A stretch of DNA of 10,549 bases from Anaeromyxobacter dehalogenans (GTDB lineage Bacteria > UBP6 > JAFGXH01), in contig DYRY01000013.1 in NCBI GenBank assembly GCA_020718465.1, positions 21,368 to 31,916 of the forward strand. Direction: 5' to 3'. The notes beneath the pieces were generated by a model. The model ran no database searches. It had not been told where the DNA came from and saw only the letters and a list, made by a program, of their open reading frames with translations. Each line of letters opens with the position of its first letter. The stretch's first letter is position 1. Of this stretch, positions 3,247 through 5,712 are shown one piece after another. Made by a program: the position numbers and the translations under genes.

Positions 3247-5712
3247 ATGGTTGATGAGAGAAGAAGAGAGCGTGATTTAATTTTAGCACCAAATGAGTAT
3301 GCATTTATTCTTGATGAAACAAAAGGTAATATTGTTAATTATGTTGGTCCACACAAAACAAGTTTGGCAAACACAGACCAACCAGTAGTTTTTGATTCAA
3401 CATCAAAAAGATTTATTCGATGTGAACTTTTTGAGGCTATTAGACAGTTTGCAATTGCACCAGAAGGATGGTATCTTGTTGTAAAAAATCCAAGCCAAGA
3501 TGGAAAAGATCCTAAAACAGGAACAGCTAACTCTCTACCAGATTTAGATGTTGGTAAAAAAGTTAATATTCCTGGTCCAATGGCATTTGTTCCTTGGCCA
3601 GGTCAAATGGTTAGAGTTCTTCAGGGGCATCATCTTCGCTCTAATCAATATCTTATTGTTAGAGTTTATGATGAAGAGGCAGCTAAAAAGAATTGGAAAA
3701 AGGCTGTTATAAAACTTCAAAACACTGAAGGTTCAGATGCATCAAAAAAAAATGAGGGTGAATTAGACTTAACAATGGGAAAACAGATTGTTATAAAAGG
3801 GACAGAGGTATCTTTTTACATACCATCAACAGGTGTTGAAGTTGTTATTGATGCAGATGGTGAATATGTTAGAAATGCTGCAACATTGGAGCGTTTAGAG
3901 TACTGTATTCTTTTAGATGAGAATGGGAATAAACGCTTTATTAAAGGACCAGCTGTTGTTTTTCCTGAACCAACAGAGGCTTTTGTTGAGAAAGATGGTG
4001 CAAGAAAATTCAAAGCAATTGAACTTAATGAGATTAGTGGATTATATGTTAAAGTTATTGCTCCTTATGAAGAGGATGGTAAATCATATAAAGTTGGTGA
4101 TGAATTATTTATAACTGGAAAGGATCAAATGATCTACTTTCCAAGACCTGAACATGCAATAATTCGCTATGGAAAGGCAGAAGTTAATTATGCTGTTGCA
4201 ATTCCTGCTGGAGAGGCAAGATATGTTTTAAATCGAATAACTGGTAAAATAGATTTAAATACAGGACCTGTTATGTTACTTCCTGATCCAAGAAAAGAGG
4301 TTATTGTTAGAAAAGTTTTAACTCAGAAACAGGTATCTCTTTGGTTTCCTGGAAATCAGGAGGCTCTTGAATATAATAGCAAGCTTATGCAACAGATTAA
4401 AAATGATAAAGGGGAGCCATATGTTGAAGTTGACTCTTTATTAATGGCTTCATCAGTTGCTGCTCCAATGAGTAAAACTATGAAAAAAGAGAAAGTTTTA
4501 GAGGATGGTTTTGTTGGTGATGATTTTAAACGTGATAAAGGGTATACACCACCAAGAACAATAACTCTTGATACAAAATACGAGGGGGCAGTTTCAATAA
4601 ATGCATGGACAGGATATGCTTTTCTTGTTGTTAGTAAAACTGGAAATAGAAAAGTTGTTGTTGGTCCAAACTCATGTCTTCTTGAGTATGATGAGACATT
4701 AGAACCAATTGAGTTATCAACAGGAACTCCTAAAACAGATAAAAATCTTTTTAAAACAGTATACTTACGAGTTTTACACAATAAAGTATCTGATATTGTT
4801 GATGCAGATACCAAAGATTTTTGTGAAGTTGCAATAAGATTATCATATCGTGTAAATTTTGAGGGAGATTCAGAAAAATGGTTTAATGTTGAGAACTATG
4901 TTAAATTTTTAACAGACCACATGAGATCTCTTTTAAGAGCTGTTATTAAAAAGTATGGAGTTGAAGAGTTCTATCGCAATGGAGTTTCAATTATTAGAGA
5001 TGCTATTCTTGGTGAGGCAAAAGAGGGTGGAAAACGTATTGGAAGAGTTTTTGAAGAGAATGGGATGAGAATTTATGATGTTGAGGTTTTAGATCTTCAA
5101 ATAAAAAATCATCTTCTTTCTAATTTATTAATTGAAACACAACAAAAAATGATACAACAAACTTTAGAATTAGACATGTCTAAAAAAATTCTTGAAGTTA
5201 CAAAAGAGAGGGAGAAAATTCAGCAAGAGATTGAAACATCAAAAGCAGATACAAAAAAAGTTAAACTTGAGCTTGAAAAAAATGAGATTACTCAGCAAAG
5301 AGATGTTCTTTTATCAAAAATTGAGACTGAAATTTTTTCAGAGCAACAAAAACTTAACTTTGCACTTAAAAAACAGAGTGTATTAAATGATATATTTGAG
5401 GCTAAATTAGAGAGAGATAAAGAGCGTTCTGATTTTGAGCTATCAGTTAAAGAGAAAGAGATGCTCCAAAGGGTTCAGGAGCTTCAGGCTGATATTGAAT
5501 CTATTGTTAAAAAAGCAGAGGCTGTATCTCCTCATTTAATTGCAGCTCTACAGCAATTCTCTGATGTTGCACTTGTTGAAAAAGTTGCAGAGTCTATGTC
5601 TCCTCTTGCAATATTGGGTGGAAAAAGTGTTGCAGAGGTGTTTGGACAACTTGTAAAGGGTACGATTTTAGAGAAAGTTTCACTTATAGAGTCTAAAACT
5701 CCAACAAAATAG
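3247..5712 (+). CDS. Major vault protein (MVP) homolog, 821 aa: MVP repeat domains, SPFH-like shoulder, cap-helix coiled coil and cap-ring segment
   Basis: RBS AGGGG lies at 3236-3240, 6 nt before ATG 3247. N-terminal LILAPNEYAFILDETKGNIVNYVGPHKTSLANTDQPVVF parallels vertebrate MVP [39 protein letters not shown]. Repeat motifs VGDELFITGKDQMIYFPRPEHAII (compare [22 protein letters not shown]) and YAFLVVSKTGNRKVVVGPNSCLLEYDETLEPI (compare [28 protein letters not shown]) are present. A shoulder-like FNVENYVKFLTDHMRSLLRAVIKKYGVEEFYRNGVSIIRDAILG is at nt ~4880-5010. A K/E/Q-rich coiled coil at nt ~5080-5480 is followed by a C-terminal segment, as in the MVP cap helix and cap ring. The comparison is from my memory of MVP sequences, not from a search. 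Confidence 0.8.
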   Translation: MVDERRRERDLILAPNEYAFILDETKGNIVNYVGPHKTSLANTDQPVVFDSTSKRFIRCELFEAIRQFAIAPEGWYLVVKNPSQDGKDPKTGTANSLPDLDVGKKVNIPGPMAFVPWPGQMVRVLQGHHLRSNQYLIVRVYDEEAAKKNWKKAVIKLQNTEGSDASKKNEGELDLTMGKQIVIKGTEVSFYIPSTGVEVVIDADGEYVRNAATLERLEYCILLDENGNKRFIKGPAVVFPEPTEAFVEKDGARKFKAIELNEISGLYVKVIAPYEEDGKSYKVGDELFITGKDQMIYFPRPEHAIIRYGKAEVNYAVAIPAGEARYVLNRITGKIDLNTGPVMLLPDPRKEVIVRKVLTQKQVSLWFPGNQEALEYNSKLMQQIKNDKGEPYVEVDSLLMASSVAAPMSKTMKKEKVLEDGFVGDDFKRDKGYTPPRTITLDTKYEGAVSINAWTGYAFLVVSKTGNRKVVVGPNSCLLEYDETLEPIELSTGTPKTDKNLFKTVYLRVLHNKVSDIVDADTKDFCEVAIRLSYRVNFEGDSEKWFNVENYVKFLTDHMRSLLRAVIKKYGVEEFYRNGVSIIRDAILGEAKEGGKRIGRVFEENGMRIYDVEVLDLQIKNHLLSNLLIETQQKMIQQTLELDMSKKILEVTKEREKIQQEIETSKADTKKVKLELEKNEITQQRDVLLSKIETEIFSEQQKLNFALKKQSVLNDIFEAKLERDKERSDFELSVKEKEMLQRVQELQADIESIVKKAEAVSPHLIAALQQFSDVALVEKVAESMSPLAILGGKSVAEVFGQLVKGTILEKVSLIESKTPTK

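Follow-up and report, generated by a model that had tools for sequence, protein, structure and literature searches.

Vaults are hollow, ring-symmetric shells, each half of which is, in animals, a 39-mer built from major vault protein (MVP), and their function has been an open question for forty years. Assembly of MVP is driven by its cap helix, the N-terminal repeat provides the contact at the waist, and the architecture of the protein was reportedly set out by Tanaka in 2009. Bacterial MVP homologues were described in 2013 (Daly et al., PMC3762200) and in 2019 (Sokolskyi, bioRxiv 10.1101/872010), with Cytophagales, Myxococcales, Herpetosiphon and Oscillatoriales as the earlier known hosts (PMC3762200; bioRxiv 10.1101/872010); MVPs of gut phages have also been reported, as has a mean length of 822 aa for bacterial MVP (bioRxiv 10.1101/2023.11.10.566534). 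A 2026 paper still states that MVP occurs in "only a few Bacteria". Asgard archaeal homologues are described from prediction as having five repeats and are modelled as a 10-mer cup (Nat Microbiol 2026, PMC12962969). Here, we analyzed a 10,549-nucleotide stretch of contig DYRY01000013.1 (assembly GCA_020718465.1, positions 21,368-31,916), referred to throughout as the window, and in particular its open reading frame (ORF) at 3247-5712. The product of this ORF, the window protein, almost certainly belongs to the MVP family, and it is very probably a complete MVP-type protein with its domains in MVP order, for which we propose assembly into a soluble, vault-like cage.

The window contains five large ORFs, all on the plus strand. 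The one considered here runs from an ATG and encodes 821 aa, in agreement with the literature mean. A preliminary description of this DNA had reported an intact gene with good bacterial translation signals, which is borne out by an AGGGGA Shine-Dalgarno sequence 5 nt upstream of the start; AAGGAG occupies the equivalent position in locus L001, from the related metagenome-assembled genome (MAG) ZodW_Metabat.349, which carries a 96%-identical protein. Homologues share both the start position and a conserved N-terminus, MxxxxRRERDLILAPNEY, and we therefore regard the ATG at 3247 as the correct start.

Among Pfam models, MVP_shoulder (PF11978) matched residues 511-619 strongly (E 1.4e-29), its 102.9 bits lying far above the cut-off of 25, a single Vault repeat was found at residues 464-507 (Vault_3; 32.8 bits, cut-off 28.8), and Band_7 (PF01145) gave a weak match (25.5 bits). 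This pattern of MVP_shoulder and Vault_3, with or without Band_7, is that of the family, with MVP_shoulder present in all 35 members scanned. In every one of the 35, Pfam saw only the last repeat and the shoulder, and the N-terminal 460 residues were therefore tested separately. Searches of all PDB chain sequences returned only eukaryotic MVP, both with phmmer (E 2.5e-11) and with a profile built from the 35 members (E 2.2e-22). The profile paired residues 460-771 of the window protein with human 464-808 and, in a second, weak segment, residues 217-364 with human 274-420.

Profile comparison with hhalign extended the match over nearly the whole protein. The bacterial family aligned with eukaryotic MVP fragments at a probability of 99.6% (E 1.9e-24; 510 columns), spanning residues 210-800 and reaching into the C-terminal cap-ring region. 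The eukaryotic set, retrieved by a search with a human fragment, consisted of C-terminal fragments of 602 aa or less, and the N-terminus was compared with human MVP 1-549, a query 100% identical to PDB 11dr_A. In that comparison, 113 bacterial sequences, comprising a close hit set and a more distant one (P0252), matched at a probability of 97.7% (E 1.6e-12), with residues 1-540 equivalent to human 1-549. The first repeat (R1) was paired with human R1, which confirms an N-terminal alignment that had previously been made by eye. Overall, the profile comparison is collinear with eukaryotic MVP from residue 1 to approximately residue 800.

The predicted structure leads to the same conclusion. With a shallow alignment of 35 sequences (60-66% identity), AlphaFold2 gave a predicted local distance difference test score (pLDDT) below 50 for residues 1-510, and that model was not used there. 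The model used here was built from 129 sequences that included a distant bacterial clade and eukaryotic fragments; its mean pLDDT is 82.9, with values above 90 over most of residues 11-390 and 450-630 and low confidence in the C-terminal domain (36-64 for residues 760-821). It contains tandem N-terminal beta-repeats of the five-stranded vault type, an SPFH-like shoulder, a continuous cap helix and a C-terminal domain. In a Foldseek search of the PDB, the first 12 matches were full-length MVP chains (E 1.4e-32 to 4.9e-27), followed by crystal structures of mouse MVP R1-R7 (E 1e-15; TMt ~0.55). SPFH cages, including flotillin, QmcA, HflK/C, prohibitin, erlin and stomatin, ranked after MVP (E 1e-7 to 1e-4) and covered only ~200-225 residues of the model, corresponding to the shoulder and helix. 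The call of a full-length MVP homologue thus stands: the hhalign alignment is collinear, the model has the repeats, shoulder, cap helix and C-terminal domain in MVP order, with both the tandem beta-repeat N-terminus and the long cap helix present, and the top structural match is MVP.

These results also bear on whether the window protein could instead be an ordinary membrane scaffold of the SPFH/flotillin/HflK-C type that resembles MVP only through its Band-7 domain and coiled coil. Such a reading could draw on the weak Band_7 match, on the name "SPFH domain-containing protein" that NCBI gives to some relatives, and on the lack of an NCBIfam model for the family. However, the score for MVP_shoulder (103 bits) far exceeds that for Band_7 (25 bits), the ~500 N-terminal residues of beta-repeats match the R1-R7 crystal structures of MVP, SPFH proteins match only ~220 residues, and there is no membrane anchor. 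Ordinary SPFH proteins lacking Vault repeats are ruled out as the best matches, which are MVP chains, and the chance that the protein is such a scaffold appears vanishingly small.

The main architectural difference from animal MVP lies in the number of repeats. The preliminary description had pointed to a recurring GDEW-type repeat motif, and this motif proved real: G-x(5-7)-G-[PTK]..[FYL].P occurs seven times, with the first Gly at residues 27, 103, 178, 227, 284, 333 and 466. A regular-expression scan found all of these except the instance at residue 27, which was recognized by eye. Human MVP has nine instances of the same motif. The last four repeats of the window protein align with human R6-R9 and the first with R1, leaving two in between as compared with four in human MVP, and in the hhalign alignment the stretch from R1 to the R6 equivalent contains gaps amounting to two repeats. 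With seven motif instances and seven groups of strands in the model, the nine-repeat (R1-R9) architecture of animal vaults is not matched, and we suggest that the repeat number is seven, an observation that may be new. Three inserts, at residues 53-71 in R1, at residues 141-177 in R3 (charged, with low pLDDT) and at residues 359-445 (helical and then disordered, enlarging the equivalent of the human R8 insert), compensate for the missing repeats, so that total length stays similar.

Other parts of the protein fit the same plan. The cap helix is rich in E, K, L and Q (22, 20, 18 and 14 residues, respectively) and aligns with the human cap helix at approximately residues 647-802, and the C-terminal domain carries a motif conserved in the close family, SPxLIAALQ...PLAILGGKSVAEVF. 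Conservation across the 113 bacterial sequences is highest in the repeat cores (mean top-residue frequency 0.73-0.87) and lowest in the cap helix (0.46). Judging from this alignment, the surfaces of the repeats and shoulder are under strong purifying selection. The highest Kyte-Doolittle value in any 19-residue segment is 1.14, and no hydrophobic segment is present; by its composition, the product is a soluble, cytoplasmic protein of 93 kDa.

The window protein is not an isolated case. A word-indexed search found at least 6,707 family clusters at 90% identity (E<=1e-3), and the top 120 matches were all 799-897 aa long and 58-66% identical over 98-100% of the query. Many of these 120 are already labelled "major vault protein" by JGI. 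When 1.84 billion representatives of clusters at 50% identity were searched exhaustively with HMMER, 1,330, 975 and 643 clusters were recovered at E<=1e-3, 1e-10 and 1e-30, respectively, and the best 150 representatives (E<=1e-186) were nearly all full length. At least 207 species-representative genomes carry the family, as counted in a narrow two-peptide scan with one genome per GTDB species. Carriers include Desulfobacterota, Chloroflexota, Cytophagales/Microscillaceae, Myxococcota, Riflebacteria, Vulcanimicrobiota, Sericytochromatia, Moduliflexus, Planctomycetota, Gemmatimonadota and others, with Thermoflexibacter ruber DSM 9560 and three Nannocystis species among the cultured ones. Although bacterial MVP had been called rare in the preliminary description, these counts, and the fact that such proteins have been described since 2013, do not support that view. 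The nearest homologue outside the genus-level pair formed by the window and L001 is 66-67% identical. As far as sequence comparison can tell, the window protein is a typical member of a large, strongly conserved and already described bacterial family, and published accounts understate by far both the size of that family and its conservation. PADLOC, NCBIfam and PHROGs yielded no match for the window protein, and our literature search brought up no experiments on an MVP from bacteria.

During this survey, we noted that three loci labelled "Bacillota" (L017 and L026) or "Synergistia" (L019) cluster in the MVP tree with Vulcanimicrobiota loci (L020, L022 and L024), and that L019 and L026 share flanking genes, including LepA, with Vulcanimicrobiota loci. 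The taxonomic labels of the MAGs containing L017, L019 and L026 are probably wrong.

In human MVP, a pocket for NAD+/ADP-ribose between adjacent shoulders involves R504, K506, R507, P508, H509, R511, L517, D521, F522, W545, P565 and K573 (PMC12280208). The P-K pair of the pocket loop (human P505-K506; residues 495-496 of the window protein) is invariant in 129 of 129 bacterial and eukaryotic sequences. The G-x-P-K "keyhole" loop is invariant as well. Farther along, human L517, D521, F522, W545, P565 and K573 are replaced by R508, N512, K513, V536, E549 and D557 in the window protein (nt ~4768-4917), and each of these replacements is conserved in 82-111 of the 113 bacterial sequences. The site thus appears from the alignment to be under constraint, with a chemistry other than the human one, and its conservation in bacteria with different residues may be new. 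Because the pocket is conserved but chemically different, ligand binding cannot be inferred from it.

Our analysis favors a self-assembling, soluble, vault-like cage as the most likely function. As in eukaryotic MVP and the SPFH cages, many copies would pack side by side through the repeats, the shoulder and the bundled cap helices into a closed, ring-symmetric cup. Two such cups may meet through their conserved N-terminal repeats, forming a hollow, vault-like shell whose barrel, owing to its seven repeats rather than nine, would not reach the length of that of the animal vault. The gene would make up a transcription unit by itself, served by its own promoter, with no dedicated partner or cargo gene adjoining. 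We consider the formation of a closed cage somewhat more probable than its absence.

Several points weigh against this interpretation. The preliminary description had the protein aligning with animal MVP along its entire length; the collinearity upholds this, but the bacterial protein is two repeats shorter (seven vs nine), and its identity to the eukaryotic C-terminal fragments is 19-22% over ~505-553 aligned positions. The count of seven repeats was itself read from motifs, hhalign gaps and the secondary structure of the model rather than from a residue-level three-dimensional superposition. The NAD+/ADP-ribose pocket known from human MVP has lost most of its residues to substitution, cage formation is argued from homology, and the literature searched holds no report of bacterial vault particles. 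Nor does the window contain a counterpart of TEP1, PARP4 or vault RNA, to judge by the lack of an Rfam match and by neighbors that include no such partner. Finally, co-transcription with the upstream gene is possible, given a gap of 62 nt and the result of a simple scan, which predicted no intrinsic terminator after either that gene or the MVP gene.

The main alternative to a closed cage is an MVP fold that never forms a two-halved vault. The protein might instead build a single cup or ring like those of the SPFH cages (HflK/C, flotillin and prohibitin), docked by its N-terminal rim to the inner membrane or another surface, or it might form an open scaffold. We find this possible but rather unlikely: no transmembrane or hydrophobic anchor is present, and there is high conservation in the N-terminal repeat, the counterpart of human R1 in the alignment and the part through which the halves of eukaryotic vaults touch at the waist. 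Extending the closed-cage model to the whole group, we tentatively suggest that bacterial MVPs might form a soluble, hollow, ring-symmetric, seven-repeat "mini-vault" that is ancient, has been vertically maintained in many lineages of filamentous or gliding habit, has been taken up by huge phages, and has had its pocket remodelled for another ligand or contact. As a whole, this broader picture has slightly less than an even chance of being right.

The genomic context of the gene is summarized in Table 1. Upstream lies a gene for a protein with a CxxC...CxxC zinc ribbon at its N-terminus, followed by an acidic linker, a P-loop NTPase region of the AAA_16 type that resembles the TOMM kinase/cyclase fusion family, and ~400 aa of TPR repeats in a STAND/MalT-like arrangement. 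The preliminary description had placed the MVP gene in a typical bacterial operon. Clustering the ORFs of 80 loci and the window by all-against-all BLASTP revealed no conserved neighbor of the MVP gene across the 80 loci, the largest neighbor cluster occurring in 12 of them; the recurrent clusters comprise histidine kinases, ABC exporters, Ser/Thr kinases, LepA, CorA, OPT and M19 dipeptidase. In addition, a promoter-like element, TTGCAT-17-TAGAAT, precedes the gene and is kept nearly base for base in L001, where the sequence farther upstream is unrelated and the upstream gene lies on the opposite strand, yet the ~60 nt before the ATG, with the promoter-like element and the Shine-Dalgarno sequence, are conserved. 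A simple consensus scan missed the element because its -35 hexamer matches only 3 of 6 bases; we take it to be a putative promoter. Since there are no conserved neighbors and the element is kept with L001, the MVP gene is best read as a stand-alone unit, and the operon claim does not hold.

Table 1. Features of the window and MVP homologues in phage genomes (nucleotide positions are those of the window unless an accession is given; aa, residues of the window protein)
Feature	Position	Strand	Remarks
Zinc-ribbon/AAA_16/TPR STAND-like protein	254-3184	+	976 aa; ORF 179-3184, probable start 254
Promoter-like element (putative)	3190-3218	+	TTGCAT 3190-3195, 17-nt spacer, TAGAAT 3213-3218; read from sequence
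Shine-Dalgarno AGGGGA	3236-3241	+	5 nt before ATG; read from sequence
CDS of bacterial MVP homologue	3247-5712	+	821 aa, 92.9 kDa, pI 5.95, without transmembrane segment
N-terminal region, seven tandem vault-type beta-repeats	3271-4776	+	From motif, hhalign gaps and model strands
Repeat 1	aa 9-71		
Repeat 2	aa 72-128		
Repeat 3	aa 129-205		
Repeat 4	aa 206-254		
Repeat 5	aa 255-310		
Repeat 6	aa 311-445		
Repeat 7	aa 446-510		
Shoulder domain, SPFH/Band-7 fold	4777-5106	+	aa 511-620; PF11978, weak PF01145; pLDDT 90-97
Cap helix	5110-5523	+	aa 622-759; single 138-residue helix by DSSP of the model
C-terminal cap-ring-like domain	5524-5709	+	aa 760-821; hhalign to eukaryotic cap-ring to aa 800
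FadL/TodX-type outer-membrane protein	5838-7247	+	
GH3 beta-N-acetylhexosaminidase-like enzyme	7373-8836	+	
TRZ/ATZ-type amidohydrolase	9162-10499	+	
Phage MVP homologue	LR756501.1 17320-19599		Genome 735 kb; record unannotated
Phage MVP homologue	LR756503.1 17320-19599		Genome 735 kb; record unannotated
Phage MVP homologue	LR756500.1 20961-23381		Genome 462 kb; record unannotated

In a different proposal, MVP and the upstream STAND-like NTPase would form a two-gene stress or anti-phage module, loosely like a vault with TEP1. The two genes lie on the same strand, 62 nt apart, and the pocket loop keeps its P-K pair in all 129 sequences. TEP1, described as a TIR-like NADase, is a STAND NTPase with NADase activity in vaults, with ADP-ribose in the MVP shoulder (bioRxiv 10.64898/2026.05.01.722283). 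However, a relative of the upstream protein occurs in only 1 of 80 loci (L075), where ~6 kb separate it from the MVP gene, and in L001 the 96%-identical copy has a divergent FG-GAP protein upstream instead. No TIR or DUF4062 effector was found in the upstream protein, whose N-terminus is a zinc ribbon; the PADLOC matches to it are confined to the TPR repeats, with none to MVP; and the other pocket residues differ from those of human MVP. A functional link is unlikely because the pairing is not conserved and the neighbor lacks a TIR-like domain, and we consider the module itself very improbable.

Some further features of the locus may be recorded here. No structured RNA was found in the window with Rfam (E<=0.1). 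The intergenic regions 7248-7372 and 8837-9161, the latter a 325-nt stretch upstream of the amidohydrolase gene, are very AT-rich (GC 0.10 and 0.19, respectively). The window is 99.9% identical to contig CCZJPT010000341.1 of GCA_973787025.1. The GH3 ORF opens with TTG at 7373 and would encode 487 aa, whereas on the matching contig it is called as 480 aa, with a start equivalent to window position 7394; because the protein collection holds no exact copy of the 487-aa version, the start at 7394 is likelier.

The gene is slightly GC-richer than its neighbors, as had been noted in the preliminary description (0.334 vs 0.273-0.309), but the suggestion made there that this fits horizontal acquisition is not supported. 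GC at third codon positions (GC3) is 0.168, close to the 0.128-0.166 of the four neighbors, and the whole excess lies at codon positions 1 and 2 (0.515 and 0.319), which points to amino-acid composition rather than transfer. Consistent with this, a rough neighbor-joining tree places the window and L001 on their own long branch within a mixed Chloroflexota/Desulfobacterota/Moduliflexus group. Cytophagales, Riflebacteria, Myxococcota and Vulcanimicrobiota group separately in this tree, and eukaryotes are set apart by a long branch. On the basis of the GC3 value, the 66-67% identity of the nearest outside homologue and this long branch, we find no evidence of recent acquisition and conclude that the gene is a long-standing resident of its host genome. 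Ancient transfers among phyla are possible.

Comparison with L001 nevertheless provides some grounds for suspecting a recent acquisition, with a eukaryote, a phage or a different phylum as the donor, or a eukaryotic contamination of the assembly. The gene and ~60 nt upstream are the only stretch common to both contigs (window 3172-5711 vs L001 8809-11349; 90.5% nucleotide identity), with unrelated flanks. The family distribution is patchy, and three huge uncultured phage genomes carry full-length homologues that are 43-46% identical over 95-98% of the window protein; gut phages carry them as well (bioRxiv 10.1101/2023.11.10.566534). However, the FadL gene is an equal single-gene island: it matches contig L082 of the same MAG with 85% nucleotide identity (window 5772-7248 vs L082 621-2097) over the gene only, among other neighbors. 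Scrambled gene order therefore appears to be general between the two genomes rather than specific to MVP. No potential donor is close, with eukaryotes ~20% identical, huge phages 43-46% and other bacteria at most 66-67%; major phyla are mostly separate in the rough tree; and the gene has bacterial Shine-Dalgarno and promoter-like signals. Neither an integrase, a transposase nor repeat boundaries flank the gene within the window, no phage genes were seen there and no PHROG matched, and no plasmid homologue was found. Recent acquisition or contamination is thus most improbable, and the resident-gene reading is preferred.

Two candidates were tried and rejected in the course of this comparison. 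A mobile MVP cassette, suggested by the sharp homology borders with L001, was set aside given the like behavior of the FadL gene and the lack of a plasmid copy, and a second copy of the MVP gene, suspected where contig L082 ends, was dismissed, the partial upstream ORF there being unrelated. As a separate observation, the gene order is unusually scrambled for such similar genomes, or one of the assemblies or bins is a mosaic.

The locus itself adds little beyond one more family member: partner genes, a mobile-element context and signs of recent transfer are all lacking. The points that might reward further study are at the level of the family: its unexpectedly large size and conservation, its seven-repeat architecture and its remodelled shoulder pocket. 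If true, the remodelling would imply a small-molecule ligand or contact other than NAD+/ADP-ribose. A bacterial system could offer simple genetic and structural access to what an MVP shell does without TEP1, PARP4 and vault RNA, and a stand-alone gene should be easy to express alone. Bacterial MVPs could likewise help in judging if the eukaryotic vault is a prokaryotic inheritance.

Among known systems, eukaryotic MVP (rat and human; PDB 4V60, 9BW5 and 11DR) is the top structural match and has the same order of repeats, SPFH shoulder, cap helix and cap-ring. The window protein, which is ~20% identical to it, differs in having seven repeats rather than nine, inserts in R1, R3 and the R8 equivalent, and a cap helix of ~138 rather than ~155 residues. 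The eukaryotic vault ribonucleoprotein also includes vault RNA, TEP1 and PARP4, none of which is seen in the context of the window. The SPFH cages (HflK/C, QmcA, flotillin, prohibitin, stomatin and erlin) are membrane-anchored and have no repeat barrel of ~500 residues, whereas the window protein is without the anchor and has ~500 residues of vault repeats ahead of its SPFH domain. Among viral proteins, the best fold match in BFVD was A0A3G5A4K1 from the giant virus Harvfovirus sp. (802 aa; E 1.3e-11; 870 alignment columns), which is annotated as a "prohibitin domain-containing protein" and is probably another unrecognized MVP-type protein. The MVP homologues of huge phages are full length, like the window protein, whose gene has housekeeping or regulatory genes as neighbors.

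Bacterial MVPs such as those of Microscilla marina (A1ZGE7), Saprospira grandis (H6L4P8), Flexibacter litoralis (I4AHY9), Plesiocystis pacifica and Corallococcus coralloides, named entries that were likened by description, belong to the same family. Relatives in Microscillaceae, Cytophagales and Myxococcota align with the window protein over its full length (56-62% identity; ~820 aa) and share its Pfam pattern. Most lineages that carry the family are filamentous or gliding, in line with earlier accounts (PMC3762200; bioRxiv 10.1101/872010); unlike the named hosts, that of the window is a low-GC (29%) MAG lineage on its own long branch. The Asgard archaeal homologues resemble the window protein in having a prokaryotic MVP fold with a reduced number of repeats, known from prediction. 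With seven repeats rather than five, the window protein differs from them in architecture, and it belongs to a much larger, bacterial clade.

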